The notes: generated by a model from the sequence alone, not told the origin. A stretch of DNA of 64,000 nucleotides from a bacterium (GCA_021806615.1 JAJZRB010000004.1:7664-71663); one strand, 5' to 3'. Shown: positions 5,023-44,316, numbered from the stretch's first letter. A program made the numbers and translations.

Positions 5023-7800
5023 TTTTTGGGACCGATGATAAGGAGCATTAATCATGCCACATTTCTTGTACTTATAAACCTCTCCGGTTTTAGGATTGAC
5101 TGCCCCACACGGACAGGGATCATTCCGCCCGACTTTTTCTCCGCTTTCATCCTTGACCTTGTCGCGGACCAGATCGATCGTATTCCGGAGAGCCGCTTCT
5201 TTATGCATCTCCTTAGCCGCTCCGGAAAATTCTAATTTTTTCTCCGGCTCGTCGGCAAAAATCTGGATCTGCTGAGCCTGCGCCGTTATCAAAGCGTCGC
5301 CGGTCTTATAAATGGAATAGACGACCTGCCGGCTGATCAGCTGGTTTAATTCTTGATAAAGCTGATAGGCTTCTTTCTTGTATTCTACGAGCGGATCACG
5401 CTGGCCATAACCGCGCAGACCGATGCCGCGGCGCAGATAATCTACGGTCTCTAGATGTTCCACCCACATCTCGTCAATGGATCTGATAAGTATCCCCTTT
5501 TCCACCTCTTTGAATTCTAGGTTGGCCGCTGAAAAATTCTGGCGCAGGGTTTCATATTTAGCTTCCGCCGCGGCGATCAGATAATTGATAATATCTTCCC
5601 GGATGGCGTCTCTGCCTTTCGCCTGTTTAGCCAGTTCGGCCAATTTGCTACTAATCCCTTCGCCTGCCGTCCAGATCGTCCGCATCGTTTCCTCTATTTC
5701 TTTCAGATTCCACTCGCTCACGTTATCAACGGCCGTATGGAAAGTGACGATACTGGCGATTTCTGCGCGCACCATCTCCAAGATGATGCCGGCCAGGCTG
5801 CGTTCGGCGGCTTGATCGCCGGGTTCGGACGCGGCGACGCTGACGCCTTCGGACAATTCCAAGATCTCCCGACGCCGCTTATAGATCGCCGTCCGATGCT
5901 TATTGATGACATCGTCATATTCCACCAGATGTTTCCGGATATCAAAGTTATTGCCTTCCACTTTCTTCTGGGCGCTTTCAATGGATTTAGAGATCATCCG
6001 GTTCTCTATAGGCATATCGGCCGGCACGTTCAAAGTGGTCATCAGGTTCTTCATCCGTTCGCCGCCGAATATGCGCATCAGATCGTCTTCCGTAGAAACA
6101 TAGAATTGCGAAGAACCGGGATCGCCTTGGCGTCCGGCGCGGCCGCGCAGCTGATTATCAATGCGCCGCGATTCGTGGCGCTCGGTACCGATAACGTGCA
6201 AGCCGCCTAAAGCGCGCACGGCTTCCTGTTCGCCTGCTTCCGGCGGGTTGCCGCCTAGGATGATATCCACGCCGCGGCCGGCCATATTCGTCGCTAAAGT
6301 GATCGCTCCCCGGCGTCCGGCTTGAGCGATTATCTCCGCTTCTTTCTGATGATTTTTGGCGTTTAACATCTGGGGACGCAGGCCTTCGCGTTGCATCAGT
6401 TCAGCGAAAATTTCGTTCTTTTCAATAGAAATCGTCCCGACTAAGATAGGCTGGCCGTTCTTATTCCTCTCTTTGATATCGCGGATGACGGCCTGAAACT
6501 TATCCATCTCCGTGCGATAGATAAGATCATTAAGGTCTTTGCGGATATTCGGCTTATTGGTCGGGATGACTATCGTGTCTAACTTATAAATCTTATGGAA
6601 TTCTTCCGCTTCCGTCGCCGCTGTTCCGGTCATGCCGGATAATTTCTTGTAAAGGCGGAAAAGATTCTGGAAAGTTATGGTCGCCATGGTCCGGGATTCT
6701 TTCTGGACTTTGACGCCTTCTTTCGCTTCGATCGCCTGATGCAGGCCCTCGCTATAGCGTCGGCCCGGCATGAGCCGTCCGGTGAATTCATCGACGATGA
6801 TGATTTCCCCGTCTTTGACGACATAGTCCTTATCGCGCTTGAATAAGACGCGCGCCTTAAGGGCCTGTTCCAGATGATGGACTTCTCTCACGCCGCCTTC
6901 CACATAGATATTCCCGAGACCGAGGATCTTTTCTACTTTGGCAATGCCGCCTTCAGTCAGCGTCGCGGCCCGCATCTTCTCATCAACGTTATAGTCATCA
7001 TTTTCTACAAGCCCGGAAACGATCTGAGAAAATTTGAAATACTTATCGGTCGATTCTTCGGCCGGCGCGCTGATAATGAGCGGGGTACGGGCTTCATCGA
7101 TAAGAATGGAGTCTATTTCATCTACGATGGCGTAATGCAGGGGGCGCTGGACGGCCTGGTCCAAGGTATAAACCATATTGTCGCGAAGATAGTCAAAACC
7201 GAATTCATTGTTCGTGCCGTAAGTAATATCGCAATCATAGGCTTCGCGGCGCGGGATGCGGCGGAAATGCTGGAGACGCTCGTCAAATTGGCTTTCGTCA
7301 ACATATTCCGGATCATAAACATAGGCGTTCTCATGGACAATGACGCCGGTAGACAAACCGAGGGCGTGATAGACCGGCGCCATCCAGCCGGCGCCTAAAC
7401 GGGACAGGTAATCATTGACGGTGATCAGATGGACTCCTTCTCCGGTAAGCGCGTTCAGATATAAAGGCAGGGTCGCCACCAAAGTCTTGCCTTCTCCGGT
7501 TTTCATTTCCGCTATCTGCCCGCGATGGAGAACGATGCCGCCTACTAGCTGGACATCGAAATGGCGCTGATTCAAAATACGGCTCGCGGCTTCGCGCGCG
7601 AGAGCAAAAGCTTCAGGGAGAAGATCGTCCAAACCTTCTCCTCCGGCTAAACGTCCCTTGAATTCCGAGGTTTTCGCCTTTAATCCTTCGGCTGATAATT
7701 TCTTGAAATCCGCCTCAAAACTGCCGATTTTATTGATTATCGGCTGCATATTCTTCACGATCTTTTCATTAGCATCTCCGAAGATATTAAATAGATTCAT
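5014..7800 (-). CDS. secA: preprotein translocase ATPase SecA
   Basis: 928 aa with MKTGEGKTL Walker A, IVDEIDSILIDEARTPLII, TNMAGRGVDI, and a C-terminal CPCG...KKCG zinc-finger-like tail. Confidence 0.97.
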   Translation of the reverse strand: MNLFNIFGDANEKIVKNMQPIINKIGSFEADFKKLSAEGLKAKTSEFKGRLAGGEGLDDLLPEAFALAREAASRILNQRHFDVQLVGGIVLHRGQIAEMKTGEGKTLVATLPLYLNALTGEGVHLITVNDYLSRLGAGWMAPVYHALGLSTGVIVHENAYVYDPEYVDESQFDERLQHFRRIPRREAYDCDITYGTNNEFGFDYLRDNMVYTLDQAVQRPLHYAIVDEIDSILIDEARTPLIISAPAEESTDKYFKFSQIVSGLVENDDYNVDEKMRAATLTEGGIAKVEKILGLGNIYVEGGVREVHHLEQALKARVLFKRDKDYVVKDGEIIIVDEFTGRLMPGRRYSEGLHQAIEAKEGVKVQKESRTMATITFQNLFRLYKKLSGMTGTAATEAEEFHKIYKLDTIVIPTNKPNIRKDLNDLIYRTEMDKFQAVIRDIKERNKNGQPILVGTISIEKNEIFAELMQREGLRPQMLNAKNHQKEAEIIAQAGRRGAITLATNMAGRGVDIILGGNPPEAGEQEAVRALGGLHVIGTERHESRRIDNQLRGRAGRQGDPGSSQFYVSTEDDLMRIFGGERMKNLMTTLNVPADMPIENRMISKSIESAQKKVEGNNFDIRKHLVEYDDVINKHRTAIYKRRREILELSEGVSVAASEPGDQAAERSLAGIILEMVRAEIASIVTFHTAVDNVSEWNLKEIEETMRTIWTAGEGISSKLAELAKQAKGRDAIREDIINYLIAAAEAKYETLRQNFSAANLEFKEVEKGILIRSIDEMWVEHLETVDYLRRGIGLRGYGQRDPLVEYKKEAYQLYQELNQLISRQVVYSIYKTGDALITAQAQQIQIFADEPEKKLEFSGAAKEMHKEAALRNTIDLVRDKVKDESGEKVGRNDPCPCGAVNPKTGEVYKYKKCGMINAPYHRSQKLH

Positions 7801-7920
7801 ATTTACCTAGTTTTACATAAAAATAAATAAGACTCAAGTCATCCTTTAGCTCTAATCTTAGTATAATACGGATTATGGATTAAATAAATATTGACTTATA
7901 TAAAAAAAGATGTTTTCTTT

Positions 7921-7956
7921 TTATAAAACTGCTCCGGCCAGCTGGGAGCAGTTTTA
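7921..7956 (-). terminator. rho-independent terminator after nrdB
   Basis: Inverted repeat aaaactgctcc/ggagcagtttt (7925-7935 / 7944-7955). On the minus strand it is followed by a TTTTATAAAAAG run, 33 nt downstream of the nrdB stop. Confidence 0.6.
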
Positions 7957-7988
7957 TGTAGATTTGAGTAGGTTAACGAGAATCGGGA

Positions 7989-8966
7989 TTATTTATGGGC
8001 TCGGTTATCTACTTCATATTTAGTGTTCTGCGCTTCAAAAAAATTAACTAATTCTAAGGTATCGGTTTCCGTCGCCATCCACTGAGCCGGATTGGCATCT
8101 TTGAAATGCGGCTCAAAGCCTAATTCTTCCAGACGGCGATCGGCCACATAGCGCACATACTGATTGACATAGCCGGCGTTGATGCCCAGGATGCCTCGCG
8201 GGAAAAGATCCTGGTTATAAGTATTTTCCAAATTGACGCCGTCAATGACTATCTTCTTTATTTCCGCCGCGAATTCAGGCGTAGCGACTTCTGGGTTCTC
8301 TTCCAGAATAGTTAGGATAAGATTCAAGCCGAATTTAAGGTGTAGGCTTTCATCGCGCACCACCCAGTCGACCATAGAAGCGAAATTTTTCAATTGCTGC
8401 TTCTGACGGAAGCTGAGAGCAACCATGAAGCCGCTATAGAACCATATCCCTTCCATCACGATATTAAACGCTACTAGATTGCGGACTAAATCTTGCTTGC
8501 CGCTTAAGCTGGAAATATCCAGATTCTCGGTCATGCGGCCGAGATAGTAAGCGATGAAATCTTCTTTCGCTTTAATAGACGGCGTTTCCAAATGGACATT
8601 AAAGACTTTCTCCCTATCCAGAGGGAAGGTTTCTAGGACGTATTCAAAGGCTTGGCAGTGGTTAGCTTCTTCCCACATCTGCTTTGCCAGATAAAGATGG
8701 GCTTCCGGCGCCTTCAAGTAAGGGTAGACGCCGAGAGCCAGCGAACGGTTGACGATGAGTTCGGCCGGATTGAAGAAGCTCATCAAGAAACTGACCGCAT
8801 GTTTCTCATCGGCGCCCATCTTCTTGAAGTCTTCCAAATCCTCGCCTAAGGCGATCTCATGCGGGAACCAGGTGTTGGCCACCGCTTGGTTATAAAGATC
8901 ATAAGCCCATTGGTATTTTATCGGCCGCAAGTTCATATCGGCGCTCATCGGTTTTCCTAAAATCAT
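7989..8966 (-). CDS. nrdB: ribonucleotide reductase small subunit, class Ic-like (R2c: Phe at the radical-Tyr position)
   Basis: 325 aa with ferritin-like metal motifs FFNPAE, EEANHCQAF, IVMEGIWFYSGF and RDESLHLKF. The layout closely parallels the Chlamydia-type R2 as I remember it (PIKYxWA..., FFSTAE, EEAVHTHTF). Confidence 0.9.
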   Translation of the reverse strand: MILGKPMSADMNLRPIKYQWAYDLYNQAVANTWFPHEIALGEDLEDFKKMGADEKHAVSFLMSFFNPAELIVNRSLALGVYPYLKAPEAHLYLAKQMWEEANHCQAFEYVLETFPLDREKVFNVHLETPSIKAKEDFIAYYLGRMTENLDISSLSGKQDLVRNLVAFNIVMEGIWFYSGFMVALSFRQKQQLKNFASMVDWVVRDESLHLKFGLNLILTILEENPEVATPEFAAEIKKIVIDGVNLENTYNQDLFPRGILGINAGYVNQYVRYVADRRLEELGFEPHFKDANPAQWMATETDTLELVNFFEAQNTKYEVDNRAHK

Positions 8967-40511: not shown

Positions 40512-41525
40512 TTATTGGCCAATTTTCGCGACATACGATGTATCCACGTGATCTTTCATGATGACGCGCTGATTCACTAATTTTTGAGAATAGATAAAAT
40601 CGGCCGCATCCTGCAGGTTCTTTAGATCATCTTCGCTGAAATTGATGCTTATCCTATTCAGCGGGTTCAAATTCGGTTCTAGGCTGGCGGAAATTTCCAT
40701 GGCTGGCGGAGTGATGTCCAGCTTAGCCTCATCAATGAACCATTTATCCGCTTGTCCGATATTCTGACGGTAAAAATCATAGGTTTCATAGAAAGCTTGT
40801 AAAAATTCCTCCGGCGCTGAGGGGTGTTCGGCGATGAACTTCTTAGACATCATGATAACGGATACGACTTTGCCGACCTGCAGGTTTCTCACCAAGCCTT
40901 TGTCTTCAAAAATGGCCGGCGTCGGGTCAAACCCGGCCATGGCATCTATATTTCCCCATTGAACGGCCTCCTTATCGCGCACTAAATCGCTCTGTTCATA
41001 AATTCCCAAGTTAATATTCTTAACATCTTTTTCTGGATTAAGGCCGGCGTCTTGTTCTGCTTTCAAGGCCATTCTCTGCGCGGCGGCGCCAAAAGGCATA
41101 GCGACCGTCTTCCCTTTCAATTCCGCGACAGATTTAATCGGAGAAAGCGGCGGAACGTACAACGAGACGCGATTATACATCAAGCGTCCGATTATCACCC
41201 AATCGGGATTCTTGGCTAATAGAGTAGCGGCCGGCTGATCGGCTGTGAAGATAACGTCGACATTGCCCGCTAAAGCCGCTTCGTTCAAAGGAGCGCCGGA
41301 AGCAAATCCCTTGAATTCTCCGGCTAAGCCATGGCTATCTAGGAAAGAGGTGTGTTTGAGGATCTGCGCCAGTTGCCCCTCAACGGCCCATGGTATCTGC
41401 CAACCTATCCTGATCGCGGTCAAGGCGCTTCCGTCCTGCTTATGGCCGTTTGATCTCCATAACGCGAAAACACCAAATAAAATAAGCGCTAGAATAACGA
41501 CATAAATAATAACTTTTTTGGACAT
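40512..41525 (-). CDS. ABC transporter substrate-binding protein, NMT1/SsuA/TauA-like, N-terminally anchored
   Basis: 337 aa with an N-terminal TM anchor, IRIGWQIPWAVEGQ, GNVDVIFTADQPA, and LKGKTVAMPFGAAAQ type-2 periplasmic-binding-protein blocks. Confidence 0.6.
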   Translation of the reverse strand: MSKKVIIYVVILALILFGVFALWRSNGHKQDGSALTAIRIGWQIPWAVEGQLAQILKHTSFLDSHGLAGEFKGFASGAPLNEAALAGNVDVIFTADQPAATLLAKNPDWVIIGRLMYNRVSLYVPPLSPIKSVAELKGKTVAMPFGAAAQRMALKAEQDAGLNPEKDVKNINLGIYEQSDLVRDKEAVQWGNIDAMAGFDPTPAIFEDKGLVRNLQVGKVVSVIMMSKKFIAEHPSAPEEFLQAFYETYDFYRQNIGQADKWFIDEAKLDITPPAMEISASLEPNLNPLNRISINFSEDDLKNLQDAADFIYSQKLVNQRVIMKDHVDTSYVAKIGQ

Positions 41526-41557
41526 AAAATTTAAAATTAGATCGGCTTTACTTTACT

Positions 41558-41586
41558 AATTTACATTATTATGGCTATTTAGTCAA
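41558..41586 (-). promoter_or_regulatory. sigma70-like promoter for the SBP-led operon
   Basis: On the minus strand, TTGACT (41586-41581), a 17-nt spacer, then TAAATT (41563-41558), ~30 nt upstream of the ATG at 41525. Confidence 0.35.
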
Positions 41587-41665
41587 TTAACACAACGCTA
41601 AATTTAATTTAATATTATTTACAAATATCTTCTTAAACTCATCCGGGTCATGGATCTAGGACTTA

Positions 41666-41740
41666 CGAAAAACCCCCATAAACAAAAGACGAAGCGAGCA
41701 TATAGCCCCGCTTCGTCCCGATCTCGCGGAGAGTGCGGGA
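41666..41740 (-). repeat. direct repeat copy A: duplicated tRNA-Ser 3' end (~15 nt) plus terminator hairpin
   Basis: Hand alignment to 43366-43437 gives ~63 identical of ~75 columns. It includes gcggagagtg (tRNA acceptor 3' strand), cttcgtcccg and ataaacaaaagacg. On the minus strand it has a 9-bp hairpin GACGAAGCG...CGCTTCGTC followed by TTTTGTTTAT. It serves as the terminator of the HD gene. Confidence 0.75.
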
Positions 41741-41778
41741 CACTATCAGAACTGAAATGAGAAGAAATGCTGATAAAC

Positions 41779-42441
41779 TTATTCAATCCCTCTAACTTCT
41801 TGCCAAAACCTATTAAAATAAGCGGCCATAAAATCATGTCTGGCTTTAGCTATTTTTTTTCCGGTTTTTGTTAGTATTTTATTCTTTATATTTTTTAACT
41901 TGAACTCATATTCCATGATAGCCGTATCGTCAACAGTATAGGCCTTGTCTTTCTTTAACTTAACTAGTTTTTTCTCATTTCCGGTATATAGGGCGTGTCG
42001 TAGATAGCCGGCAAATAGAAAATCACGACCGATGCCGACCGCCCCAATAGAATCAAGCTTATCAGCATCGAATAAGACTTTAGCTTCAATTGTTTTTGGG
42101 ATATTATTATTTCTATATCTGTGGCTAATAATACAATGGAGAATATTATCTAGTATATTTTGATCTAAATTATATTTTTTTAAAATTTTATTAGCCAGTT
42201 CGGCTCCCTTTTCGGCATGACAAAATTTTCCCCGGCTGACCATTTCCTCTTTACGACCGATATCATGTAATAGACAAGCCACCATCAAAACAGATAAATC
42301 TGCTTTCTCTTTTTTACCAATATTCATAGCTAAATTACAGACACGCTCGACATGAGTCCAGTCATGGCAACCGCTAGCACCAATAAAAAACTTCTTAGCT
42401 TCCTTTTCTATTTTTTGAATGATTTCTCGGCTGATTTTCAT
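41779..42441 (-). CDS. HD-domain metal-dependent phosphohydrolase
   Basis: ORF track gives 41779..42489. I prefer ATG at 42441 (MKISREIIQKIEKEAKKFF). It has HDWTHVERV ... LLHDIGR (the H...HD motif) and FDADKLDSIG. The gene is AT-rich. Confidence 0.8.
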   Translation of the reverse strand: MKISREIIQKIEKEAKKFFIGASGCHDWTHVERVCNLAMNIGKKEKADLSVLMVACLLHDIGRKEEMVSRGKFCHAEKGAELANKILKKYNLDQNILDNILHCIISHRYRNNNIPKTIEAKVLFDADKLDSIGAVGIGRDFLFAGYLRHALYTGNEKKLVKLKKDKAYTVDDTAIMEYEFKLKNIKNKILTKTGKKIAKARHDFMAAYFNRFWQEVRGIE

Positions 42442-42534
42442 ATTTTTCAAAACTATTGACCTATTTCTCAGTATATAATATAATAACAATGTAGTTGAAA
42501 GACTACCGTCCCCTAAACGATACTAGGATTGTAT

Positions 42535-43197
42535 TCACACCTCCGCGCAAGCGGAGTGTTTTTTTATTCCGGCGTTTTCTAGCCTTAAAAAGCCACCCAA
42601 TGTTTCAGCGGGGATAAAAACATCAGCTACTGCCTGCAGCTCTTTGCTCATCCTATTTCTAGTGCAAACGACAATAACTTTTTTACCCTTACTTTTTAAG
42701 TAGCTGAGTAGCCCGCCAAAATCGCTATCGCCAGAGAAAAGCATGACCGTATCGTATTTTTCGGACTTGGTGATCATATCCATGGTTATCTCTACATCGA
42801 AATTACATTTTGGAACTTTATTTAAGAAAACACCGGATTCATCATAATGCGGAATCATCTTAATATCTTTAGTCTTAACTTCAAATCCATTCTTTCTGGC
42901 TTTGTCTAATCTGAACATTGAAGCGCGATATTTTTTATTATTATCGTGCTCTTTTGAAAAATTTGTATTTTCTAAATAACGTCCGTAATAAAATAGTCTC
43001 TTTATCGGGAAGACCCAATTAATAATTTCTGCCAATTTTGCAATGTCTACTTCTTGACTAATTCTGAACTTATTTTCTTCCGGCCATAACTCTTTGGCCC
43101 AAGGACGCACATTGCCAAAATCAACAAAAACATAGACACGACCGAAGTCTGCCTTTTTAAATAAATAATATTCGGCTTTTAGTTCAACAAAATTCAT
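42535..43197 (-). CDS. NYN (LabA/DUF88-like) domain protein, predicted RNase
   Basis: 220 aa with VYVFVDFGNV (N-terminal Asp strand), FDVEITMDM and VMLFSGDSDFGGLLSYLKSKGKKVIVV, the typical LabA-like NYN pattern. The gene is AT-rich. Confidence 0.7.
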   Translation of the reverse strand: MNFVELKAEYYLFKKADFGRVYVFVDFGNVRPWAKELWPEENKFRISQEVDIAKLAEIINWVFPIKRLFYYGRYLENTNFSKEHDNNKKYRASMFRLDKARKNGFEVKTKDIKMIPHYDESGVFLNKVPKCNFDVEITMDMITKSEKYDTVMLFSGDSDFGGLLSYLKSKGKKVIVVCTRNRMSKELQAVADVFIPAETLGGFLRLENAGIKKHSACAEV

Positions 43198-43365
43198 ACT
43201 CCCAATATATCACAAGACGAGAGGAAGATAAATCTATTTTTTTGTATTTTGGCTCGAACTGGACTTTGGAAACAGAAAAAATTGAAATGTTAGCATATAA
43301 ATGGTTAATACAATAACAAAAATTACAAACACTCCTTAACGACAAAATAGCAAGGTTGGAACTGG

Positions 43366-43437
43366 CGAAAACCCCTATAAACAAAAGACGGAGCGAGCTT
43401 TTAGACTCACTTCGTCCCGTACTGCGGAGAGTGAGGG
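43366..43437 (-). repeat. direct repeat copy B: genuine tRNA-Ser 3' end plus its terminator
   Basis: Partner of 41666-41740. On the minus strand the hairpin GACGAAGTGAG...CTCGCTCCGTC is followed by TTTTGTTTAT immediately 3' of the tRNA. Confidence 0.75.
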
Positions 43438-43508
43438 ATTCGAACCCTCGATACCTTGCGGTATACGCGCTTTCCAAGCGCGCGCACTCGACCACTATGC
43501 GAACTCTC
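43424..43508 (-). tRNA. tRNA-Ser (anticodon GGA), long variable arm, no encoded CCA
   Basis: Hand-folded sequence: GGAGAGT-TC-GCA-TAGTGGTCGAG-TGC-G-CGCGC-TTGGAAA-GCGCG-TATACCGCAAGGTATC-GAGGG-TTCGAAT-CCCTC-ACTCTCC-G. It has a 7-bp acceptor stem, a 3-bp D stem (Ser type), anticodon loop TT-GGA-AA, a 16-nt variable arm and a TTCGAAT T-loop. Confidence 0.9.
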
Positions 43509-43548
43509 CTTATAGCTGAAGACGCGTCTTAAACGATCAATCGTCTCG

Positions 43549-44316
43549 CTAAATATTGCTTAGCTTCTTCTGTATGACCGTCTTCAAGCCCTCTATCTTA
43601 TCGCCATTAGAATCAGTGAAGTCGGCATATGGCCGGGCGCCGAGTATCATCTCGGAGCCGATGAATAAAGTCGGCGCTCCCTGGACGGAATAAGTCTTAG
43701 CTTCTTCTATGGACTGTTCTATTTTTCCTGATTTTTCTTCATTAGTCAAGCAGGCCTGGAAACTATAATCATTCAAGCCTATCTGCTTAGCATAAGAGGC
43801 GAAATCGGCACTTCCGGCTTGCTGGTTCTTCGCGCGCGCGAATAACAGCGCTCTCATTTCCCGCCACTTCCCTTGCGCGTAAGCGCAGTCTACGGCCGCG
43901 GCCGCCTGGATAGCGGACGAGGAATTACTAAGGGCGAAAGGGCGGATAACGAGCGCCAGCTTATTCCCGACTTCAACGCTGATCTTTTCCAGAGTATCGG
44001 CCAAAGCGGCGCTGTAAGGGTTAGTATAATCTTCATAGACGAAAACCTTAAGCGGCGCGGACGCGGAACCGAAGATCTTATCGTTAGGGCGCACAACCGG
44101 CGCTTGAGAAGCCAGATAGCTCTGGGCTTTTACGCCGGAAGAGCCATCGGCGGCGATAGGCGCCGCGCCGTATTCTGCCGGAGCTGATTTTTGGGCGCTC
44201 TCAAATACTATTATCAAGACGATAATGATCAGTGCCAAGGCTACGACAGTGGGCAAAAGATGGACCTTATTCTTCCGTAGCCAATGGGAAAATGATTTAA
44301 TGACGTTCTCGCTCAT
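43549..44316 (-). CDS. membrane-anchored DsbA/thioredoxin-fold protein lacking the CxxC active site
   Basis: 255 aa with an N-terminal TM anchor. YEDYTNPYSAAL sits where DsbA-family proteins have F.D..CPFC. The downstream blocks AVDCAYAQGKWREM and VQGAPTLFIG match the DsbA/Thioredoxin_4 layout. Confidence 0.65.
   Translation of the reverse strand: MSENVIKSFSHWLRKNKVHLLPTVVALALIIIVLIIVFESAQKSAPAEYGAAPIAADGSSGVKAQSYLASQAPVVRPNDKIFGSASAPLKVFVYEDYTNPYSAALADTLEKISVEVGNKLALVIRPFALSNSSSAIQAAAAVDCAYAQGKWREMRALLFARAKNQQAGSADFASYAKQIGLNDYSFQACLTNEEKSGKIEQSIEEAKTYSVQGAPTLFIGSEMILGARPYADFTDSNGDKIEGLKTVIQKKLSNI

Follow-up and report, generated by a model that had tools for sequence, protein, structure and literature searches.

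RS1 and TLC of Vibrio are satellites of integrated inoviruses, and txpA/RatA and bsrG/SR4 are type I toxin-antitoxin systems with a 3'-overlapping antisense RNA. Insertion at the 3' end of a tRNA gene that leaves a displaced tRNA fragment is the hallmark of tyrosine integrase islands (PMC4383910). Cis-mobilisable elements (CIMEs) are decayed integrative and conjugative or integrative and mobilisable elements that retain attL and attR and undergo tandem accretion (PMC5704250). In order to place a tRNA-associated locus among these systems, we analysed a 64,000-nt stretch of bacterial DNA (GCA_021806615.1 JAJZRB010000004.1:7664-71663), hereafter the window, in which positions are counted from the first letter. 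Segment 41726-43438 is probably an integrase-less derivative of small inovirus-like elements that insert at tRNA 3' ends in Patescibacteria by means of a large serine recombinase (LSR). It has kept both element ends, and its cargo is one cassette made up of an NYN nuclease gene and a convergent antisense small RNA (sRNA), and a separate HD cassette.

The locus shares with Islander-type islands the tRNA 3'-end target, the restoration of the gene by the element, a direct repeat at the far end, a shifted composition and strain-variable content. Unlike in those islands, the recombinase is an LSR and not a tyrosine integrase, the duplicate extends into a terminator homologous to that of the host, and the recombinase open reading frame (ORF) runs antisense through terminator and tRNA. 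Compared with CIMEs, the locus is alike in the loss of integration and propagation genes, in the retention of both ends, and in having intact relatives at the same site and tandem arrays in sister strains (contigs L103 and L194); it differs in that the parents are inovirus-like Patescibacteria prophages instead of conjugative Firmicutes elements, in that several distant hosts share one and the same decayed unit, and in that mobilisation is something we infer (PMC5704250). Like inoviruses and their satellites RS1 and TLC, the family has a parent with a Zot/pI-like ATPase, a rolling-circle Rep and an integrase, and a small derivative without these; it uses an LSR directed into tRNA genes, in contrast to XerCD at dif, and no Rep or packaging signal was recognised in the derivative in the window. 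As a decayed integrative element in a tRNA gene, the island belongs to a familiar class; its type of recombinase is unusual.

The sole tRNA gene that ARAGORN found in the window is tRNA-Ser(GGA) at 43424-43509 on the minus strand, which the Rfam tRNA model scores at 57.4 bits. We regard it as the integration target, and its last 15 nt (43424-43438, TCCCTCACTCTCCGC) would be the att core that recurs in the distal copy. An earlier description of this locus, made from the window alone (the sequence-only reading), had reported an imperfect direct repeat of about 75 nt with 63 of 75 columns identical. Global alignment of 41666-41741 with 43366-43439 gave 63 of 76 identical positions (82.9%), and blastn between the two copies returned E = 6e-15. 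The repeat search resolved two pairs, 41669-41720 against 43368-43419 (52 nt, 87%) and 41726-41740 against 43424-43438 (15 nt, 93%), the latter with 14/15 positions identical, TCCCTCACTCTCCGC in the proximal and TCCCGCACTCTCCGC in the distal copy. The content had also been described correctly, as ARAGORN and folding confirmed: the repeat takes in the final 15 nt of tRNA-Ser and then a hairpin with its U-run, displaced by about 1.7 kb along the minus strand, and both copies are terminator-like on that strand, with hairpins of -21.3 and -16.3 kcal/mol. A 22-nt repeat core, allowing up to three mismatches, has exactly two occurrences in the 64 kb and none in 100 shuffles, which answers the proposed check for further copies of the unit within the window. 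The GC profile agreed with the claim that the enclosed DNA is AT-rich, with 0.351 over 41741-43423 as compared with 0.485 for the whole window and 0.45-0.58 for the flanks. Two minus-strand genes are enclosed, HD at 41779-42441 and NYN at 42535-43197.

The two repeat copies would have different origins. The proximal copy (43366-43423, minus strand) reads as an element-borne terminator behind the tRNA, on the P' side of attL, since its hairpin and U-run are collinear with intact LSR 3' ends in L098 and L015 (alignment A4); the suggestion that the element had carried a heterologous tRNA flank fits this assignment. The distal copy (41666-41740, minus strand) would be attR, made up of the displaced original tRNA 3' end (41726-41740) and the original host terminator.

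Same-species contigs were reached through cluster members of the flanking DsbA-like and substrate-binding proteins, and ten such contigs were obtained. Identity to the window was 96.5% for DsbA, 96.9% for GatA, 100% for the tRNA (L097, L098) and 98.9% for the substrate-binding protein gene, with the flanks at 96.5-100%. In L097, L100 and L102 this identity ends exactly at the tRNA 3' end (43424), and in L097, L105 and L194 it returns at 41733, inside the distal repeat. From 41733 downward the window is 95.7-98.9% identical to L097 and L105, which hold another island. The occupant in L097 is 5.1 kb long; its serine recombinase is broken up into two ORFs, and it also contains four small ORFs and an NYN of 223 aa that differs from the one in the window. 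In L098, L099, L101 and L103, identity runs through the terminator and an LSR stub to 43246, where an intact LSR ORF of at least 555 aa follows. Because same-species strains have different DNA between the same two points, the repeat-bracketed segment is, on these alignments, a real insertion and the tRNA-Ser site a hot spot. The sequence-only reading had proposed a comparison with related genomes and had named conservation of NYN and HD at this locus in all relatives, without the repeat, as a case against insertion; same-species strains carry other DNA between the same junctions instead.

Assembly GCA_027425215.1 holds both L103, the contig with tRNA and LSR, and L194, in which the end of a foreign element is joined to the tRNA 3' end that opens the other island; going by these joins, the arrangement is one of tandem accretion. 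Two different serine-recombinase elements stand in tandem at one tRNA-Ser in L103/L194 (GCA_027425215.1) and in L099/L105 (ERZ27237554), and the junction of TTCCAGTTCTGATAGCG with TCCCTCACTCTCCGC shows that the second element entered the tRNA end which the first had rebuilt. A recurring scar was also observed between tRNA-Ser with its terminator and the next island, consisting of GAAARGGGAWTTYGAAS, a GC-rich insert of 30-140 nt and AATCCCYCNCTCTCCGCA, a second tRNA-Ser 3' end. This scar lies at 7703-7917 in L097, 7671-7775 in L106, 5769-5935 in L015 and ~6750-6870 in L010, and is not in the window.

The DNA between NYN and the tRNA had been described as non-coding and the segment as free of any integrase. 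No intact integrase is present, but an LSR stub is: tblastn with the LSR of L015, a complete Falkowbacteria genome (CP066698.1), matched window 43221-43451 (+) to the last 77 aa at 65% identity, with one stop codon and E 1.5e-23. The stub (43246-43365, plus strand, a pseudogene on the basis of tblastn and A4) corresponds to the last ~120-145 nt of the LSR gene, within the 168 nt from NYN to the proximal repeat. Its frame continues antisense through terminator and tRNA to 43532, and a 58-aa ORF at 43356-43532 (+) is the tail of this frame. The window has no other LSR match, and the stub of about 40-77 aa lacks the LSR domains. These domains are found in the intact LSR of L098 (Resolvase PF00239, 3.6e-16; Recombinase PF07508, 6.4e-10; Zn_ribbon_recom PF13408, 1.9e-07), which also matches the phrog_95 integrase at 1.7e-63. 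In A4, the window, the intact L098 and L015 and the decayed L106 and L010 are collinear from the tRNA 3' end via the terminator to CCAGTTCGARCC and diverge beyond; homology of the window to intact LSR genes stops right after CCAGTTCGAGCC (43250-43262), and identity of the non-coding stub across the window, L098, L106 and L015 is 82-86%.

On the evidence of this stub and its intact relatives, the integrase was of the large serine type and not of the tyrosine type usual at tRNA genes. A classical tyrosine-integrase island that had lost its integrase would explain the displaced tRNA 3'-end fragment, the hallmark of that class (PMC4383910), whereas the sole recombinase remnant is of the serine type, all intact relatives encode LSRs, and no tyrosine recombinase was seen at the site in any strain. 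We consider such an origin extremely improbable.

Two further features of the LSR gene were observed. The integrated LSR ORF meets its first stop only after crossing, in antisense, both its own terminator and the entire tRNA gene (window 43356-43532 +; L098 6696-8360 -; L015 9472-11172 -), so the last ~36 LSR residues would be host-encoded. In addition, independent integrase-less islands with different NYN genes hold the stub to the same point after CCAGTTCGARCC (window 43250-43262; L010 5330-5352; A4 columns ~185-200). This 12-mer resembles the far-end motif described below and the tRNA T-loop, and in the LSR gene it may be a pseudo-att site that generates deletions or satellites.

A metagenome scan with an LSR alignment yielded 80 loci at 51-96% identity. 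In 59 cases the LSR match ends no more than 200 nt from a tRNA gene on the other strand, mostly at ~62 nt, and the tRNAs concerned are Ser (GGA/GCT/TGA/CGA), Asp, Gln, Trp, Asn and Glu. The core module, Rep-p64-p73-LSR, has two small ORFs and a rolling-circle Rep (PF23343; phrog_3419) upstream of the LSR. Viral sequences scanned with a single LSR sequence gave nothing; the LSR alignment gave four loci, including L195, an IMG/VR contig with Zot and Rep, for which phrog_197 and phrog_3419 scored 1.5e-14 and 1.5e-16. The Zot/pI-like morphogenesis ATPase was found in L195 and in 18 of ~30 informative loci, including L116 and L122. Because the family has a Zot/pI-like ATPase, a rolling-circle Rep and an LSR, we call it inovirus-like; by gene content its members are small integrative elements of Patescibacteria. 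No coat proteins were identified in the parent family, and the Zot/pI-like ATPase and Rep are both absent from the window. Published records include cryptic inoviruses in hosts of the candidate phyla radiation and, among the integration genes of inoviruses, serine recombinases (PMC6813254).

The opposite end of these elements bears a conserved motif. In the window, TTTCAGTTCTGATAGTG follows HD, 25 nt past its stop codon, and the far-end ('P arm') motif TCATTTCAGTTCTGATAGTG (41741-41760, minus strand) stands directly before the distal core. The pattern CAGTTC[GT][GA]AT has a single occurrence in the window, at 41745-41754 on the minus strand, which is at the distal junction. Among the 80 intact-element loci, TTYCAGTTC[TG][AG]ATA was found 4.3-7.5 kb upstream of the LSR in L143, L148, L159, L171 and L188 and at 9.75 kb in L132, followed by a decayed tRNA-like 3' end and mostly also by a terminator, and it occurs at the ends of other stub islands too (A8). 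A search for attR with the last 16 nt of the tRNA failed in 57 of the 59 intact loci, apparently since the displaced ends are decayed or short. In the intact L148, genes for a MutH-like endonuclease and for an N6/N4 methylase (6868-8279, -), a restriction-modification pair, fill the slot between far end and Rep and are encoded on the other strand from the LSR; NYN and HD occupy the same slot in the same orientation. The motif was also seen as TTTCAGTTCTAATA in L004 (11366-11375), between Bro-N and methylase genes and ~1 kb after a tRNA-Trp, which points to another element of the family in that genome. A viral origin of NYN or the sRNA was dropped as an explanation, as IMG/VR holds neither an NYN relative nor the sRNA core.

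Comparison of these loci shows how the intact element integrates. Its LSR gene is convergent with the tRNA and overlaps, at the 3' end, a terminator and a substitute tRNA 3' end that the element itself brings. On integration the tRNA is rebuilt, and its former 3' end is moved together with the host terminator to the far side, beside the far-end motif. The window retains the core, the terminator and a ~120-nt LSR stub at one end, and TTTCAGTTCTGATAGTG with the displaced core at the other. A unit of stub, NYN and sRNA would have formed once and then spread among hosts as a non-autonomous element. Its junction is identical in L106-L113, at tRNA-Ser(TGA) with a cupin as second gene (88.4% over 988 nt), and in L199, at tRNA-Ser(GGA) with an 81-aa ORF as second gene (85.5% over 1218 nt); both also have the far-end motif. 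Between the window and L199, LigA and GatA reach only 65-68% identity, below the 85.5% of the island block. The presence of LSR stub, NYN and sRNA together at tRNA-Ser genes of distant hosts suggests mobilisation in trans: LSRs of intact relatives probably carried out both excision and integration of the unit, in a CIME- or satellite-like manner, or alternatively it may have been swapped in where homologous recombination engaged the conserved ends of an element already in residence. The candidate sequence of the empty site (attB) is reconstructed as GGTTCGAATCCCTCACTCTCCGCGAGATCGGGACGAAGCGG, and that of the attP junction of the small island as TTTCAGTTCTGATAGTGTCCCTCACTCTCCGCAGTACGGGACGAAG.

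The NYN block (~43241-42452) reaches further still, with identities of 84% in L009, 84% in L003-L008, 88% in L106-L113 and 85.5% in L199. L009 has the order LigA-GatCA-DsbA-tRNA-Ser-NYN without HD, its housekeeping genes being only 68% identical to those of the window, and it looks like a further deletion between two CCAGTTCNANCC repeats. L003-L008 represent a genome of 27% GC, the one that also carries the L004 motif, in which NYN (92% protein identity) adjoins a tRNA-Tyr.

Decay on the spot is one alternative, in which the window strain once had an L098-type prophage and lost recombinase and phage genes, NYN and HD being the cargo of that prophage. It would account for the collinearity of the intact LSR 3' end of the sister strain with the stub to 43246, and for the cargo of intact elements in the same slot and orientation. 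However, the proximal terminator and stub are only 85.5% identical to sister strain L098 in spite of flanks at 96.5-100%, the identical stub-NYN junction is present in L106 and L199, which are unrelated hosts, something other than HD forms the far end of the upstream element in the sister strain (L105, positions 1-153), and none of the 80 intact LSR elements carries NYN or HD. The low identity of the stub against flanks of ~97%, together with the same unit in distant hosts, favours acquisition of a pre-formed integrase-less island, and we give decay in place only a small chance.

NYN, and perhaps HD, might instead be old residents, ancestral downstream of tRNA-Ser, with the repeat as a local terminator duplication or an unrelated relic. 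The order DsbA-tRNA-Ser(GGA)-NYN is indeed common to the window, L009 and L199, and base composition alone is no proof of recency, as an excess of AT over the surroundings is seen for NYN in nearly all of 80 loci taken from species-representative genomes and for HD in the two other loci checked. Against this stand the same-species strains with other DNA at the site and neither gene, a non-coding stub that is 85% identical between hosts whose LigA and GatA are at 65-68%, the same unit at tRNA-Ser(TGA) in another neighbourhood, NYN at 92% protein identity by tRNA-Tyr in the 27% GC genome, and the far-end motif at the distal junction. This explanation appears even less probable than decay in place. 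The same-species occupants, the recombinase stub and the far-end motif all support the degraded integrative island at a tRNA-Ser 3' end that the sequence-only reading had proposed. Its suggestion of a satellite is plausible in view of the same unit in distant hosts at more than host-gene identity.

The NYN gene (42535-43197, minus strand, 220 aa) encodes a LabA-like, PIN-like protein that matches PF01936 at 2.4e-20 in Pfam, as had been called. Residues D26, D134, D157 and D159 are invariant across 37 homologues, and an AlphaFold model (pLDDT 85) has 2qip (1.6e-8) and the NYN domain of MARF1 (2e-5) as best folds. By homology and model, it is a predicted NYN/PIN-like nuclease with conserved acidic active-site residues. 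As of a 2017 survey of the PIN superfamily, no member of the bacterial LabA-like NYN proteins had been functionally studied (PMC5499597). Upstream, 43198-43245 (minus strand) forms the 5' end of the NYN block; homology to L009 starts at 43241, and the region is continuous with the stub in L106 and L199. Membership in a known defence system was rejected: PADLOC gave only partial matches, of the NYN model PDLC01154 and of HEC-09, to residues ~133-198, the C-terminal third. The C-terminal tail is disordered in the structure model. The tails KKHSACAEV and NTPPxxAEV (residues 205-220, window 42535-42582, A2) appear, by hand back-translation from the proteins, to be one terminator hairpin DNA read in different frames. 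Three unrelated NYN subfamilies were observed as cargo in serine-recombinase-derived tRNA-Ser islands (L097 12085-12756; L010 5401-5913; window 42535-43197), and the sRNA is present only in the subfamily of the window.

The spacer of 93 nt between NYN and HD, likewise taken for non-coding DNA before, holds a plus-strand promoter, a structured RNA and a terminator. The predicted antisense sRNA gene spans 42456-42565 (+), with the promoter TTGACC-17-TATAAT at 42456-42484 (score 11/12), an RNA of ~75 nt at ~42491-42565 and a called plus-strand terminator at 42541-42556 plus T7. The RNA would be composed of a P1 hairpin with a GAAA tetraloop, an H-type pseudoknot and the terminator, which overlaps the last ~9 NYN codons. 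The same arrangement of promoter, 5-6 bp GNRA hairpin, pseudoknot, conserved linker and terminator was found behind every NYN of the subfamily (53-100% protein identity). A covariance model matched the window at 42492-42565 (77.1 bits, E 2e-14) and gave 32 strong matches (62-95 bits) and one weak match over 1.03 Mb of NYN loci. Each gene of this subfamily (NYN-B) has a single match, which invariably lies on the other strand and directly adjoins the stop codon. No match was found in 0.96 Mb of other loci. A weak sRNA-like match (29.9 bits) was seen in L081 at 8592-8665 (-), in the same relative position at a Doudnabacteria NYN of 31% protein identity; the sRNA may extend to more distant NYN genes.

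Base-pair covariation was consistent with this structure. Since the covariance-model alignment A6 mis-registers P1 for sequences with a 6-bp P1, P1 was counted on A7, where 96.9% of cells pair as against 27-40% with slid partners, 0/500 shuffles reach the observed values, and both sides change in 11 of 20 pairs. In A6, the pseudoknot pair 17-28 is GC in 15 and CG in 14 sequences, although this helix is absent from the model, and pair 24-38 is GC in 15 and AU in 14. The G-U pairs fix the plus strand as that of the sRNA. An integron-like attC reading of the NYN 3' region was dropped, because promoter, terminator and G-U pairs mark a plus-strand RNA. Rfam gave nothing over 41300-43700 at E <= 1 apart from matches to the tRNA gene, and only noise over 42430-42600 (E > 4, 11-13 bits). 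As far as the alignments and models go, the sRNA is a previously undescribed structured RNA that matches no Rfam family and is strictly coupled to this NYN subfamily.

We propose that the sRNA controls the nuclease, so that the pair would act as a self-contained addiction- or defence-like module that keeps the island. The structured sRNA could trigger destruction of the NYN message through the 3' overlap, or it could bind and inhibit the NYN enzyme; the near-invariant loops argue for recognition by protein. Action in trans on the NYN ribosome-binding site was considered and dropped, given duplex energies with a mean z of -0.39 and cognate pairs at -17.0 vs -17.1 kcal/mol for non-cognate ones. 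In common with type I and type III (ToxIN) toxin-antitoxin systems, this is a compact, mobile and patchy module: a nuclease gene goes strictly together with a small structured RNA that is convergent and overlaps it, is served by a separate promoter and contains a pseudoknot. Unlike type I systems, it has a soluble 220-aa NYN nuclease and not a small hydrophobic membrane peptide, and only the terminator is predicted to overlap the ORF. Unlike type III systems, the RNA is single-copy, downstream and convergent instead of forming tandem repeats upstream, and the RNase does not have the ToxN fold. It is a tentative idea, which we hold to be rather less than even in likelihood, that NYN and its obligatory convergent pseudoknot sRNA are a new RNA-controlled nuclease module, toxin-antitoxin-like or abortive-infection-like, that rides on and stabilises integrase-less satellites of tRNA-targeting inovirus-like Patescibacteria prophages.

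The HD gene (41779-42441, minus strand, 220 aa) lies in a homology block of 41737-42458 and is a putative phosphohydrolase gene of the YpgQ/YedJ type, its earlier assignment to HD being upheld by PF01966 at 9e-15. YpgQ is a Mn-dependent (d)NTP pyrophosphohydrolase. The window protein resembles YpgQ of B. subtilis (5dqv, 1e-25) and YedJ of E. coli (3gw7, 7e-18) over its full length and has the HD motif residues; it differs from them as cargo of a mobile island and in scoring below the NCBIfam equivalog cutoff (PRK10119, the YedJ model: 1.2e-27, 96.8 bits, cutoff 286). PADLOC gave only weak matches to Cas3/Cas10 HD motifs. Including the far-end motif, the HD block is 89% identical to L010-L014 over 722 nt; there a different NYN of 170 aa precedes HD, and in L015 HD is alone.

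The sequence-only reading had suggested that NYN and HD work together as a two-gene RNA-targeting, stress or defence module, and in its strongest form this would be an obligate defence or toxin system delivered as a pair. The genes are adjacent and co-oriented, and HD is probably co-transcribed by read-through from NYN, because it brings only 17 nt of its own upstream DNA; an NYN, if a different one, precedes HD in L010 as well, and the partial PADLOC matches mentioned above fall on the C-terminal third of NYN. However, the pairing did not hold up beyond this locus. No HD homologue lies within 8 kb at any of the 80 NYN loci, four other contexts have an NYN of 92-97% protein identity and no HD, and HD occurs on its own in L015. 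The NYN and HD blocks are separately bounded and meet at the 7-nt CAATAGT (42452-42458). What follows NYN-sRNA as second gene varies (HD, a cupin, an 81-aa ORF or none), and the constant partner is the sRNA; HD itself looks like a housekeeping hydrolase. An obligate NYN-HD system is thus very unlikely, and HD would be an unrelated passenger.

Several points weigh against an integrase-less derivative with an NYN-sRNA cassette. All ten same-species contigs are occupied, and none shows an empty tRNA-Ser site in which tRNA and substrate-binding protein gene adjoin. The source run, as assembled in Logan, is interrupted within the tRNA-Ser gene, and the join rests on the longer assembly together with L009 and L199. 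AT-richness is weakened as evidence of recent arrival by its presence at most NYN loci. The attP junction of the small island was not found in IMG/VR, the absence of NYN and HD from the 80 intact elements counts here as well, and vertical inheritance could account for part of the occurrence of NYN next to DsbA-tRNA-Ser in three related lineages. The crossover position is resolved no finer than the 15-nt core. Textbook LSR sites have only a few bases in common, and the 75-nt repeat would on that account reflect the load of the element and not the mechanism of recombination. The sRNA pairs in trans with its own NYN start region no more strongly than with shuffled or non-cognate ones, and its expression and any effect on NYN are predictions from sequence.

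The island is flanked on the right by a gene for an NMT1-like substrate-binding protein (40512-41525, minus strand; Pfam; 98.9% identical in L097) and on the left by a DsbA-like thioredoxin gene (43549-44316, minus strand; Pfam; 96.5% identical in L097 and L098), which is preceded by GatA, GatC and LigA. The synteny of the left flank is retained in L009 and L199. The break in the Logan assembly (SRR13189623; L001 start / L002 end, window 43462-43473) is consistent with several coexisting alleles in the sample.

In summary, the most interesting content of this locus is the NYN-sRNA module and the mobile family of integrase-less islands that carries it. Patescibacteria have tiny genomes and few known routes of gene exchange. 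Here, a large and coherent inovirus-like family of this group targets many tRNA 3' ends by a serine recombinase, which is normally the job of a tyrosine integrase, and integrase-less derivatives with both ends appear to move between distant hosts with exchangeable single-gene cargo. The NYN-sRNA pair provides a direct and testable handle on the role of bacterial NYN nucleases.

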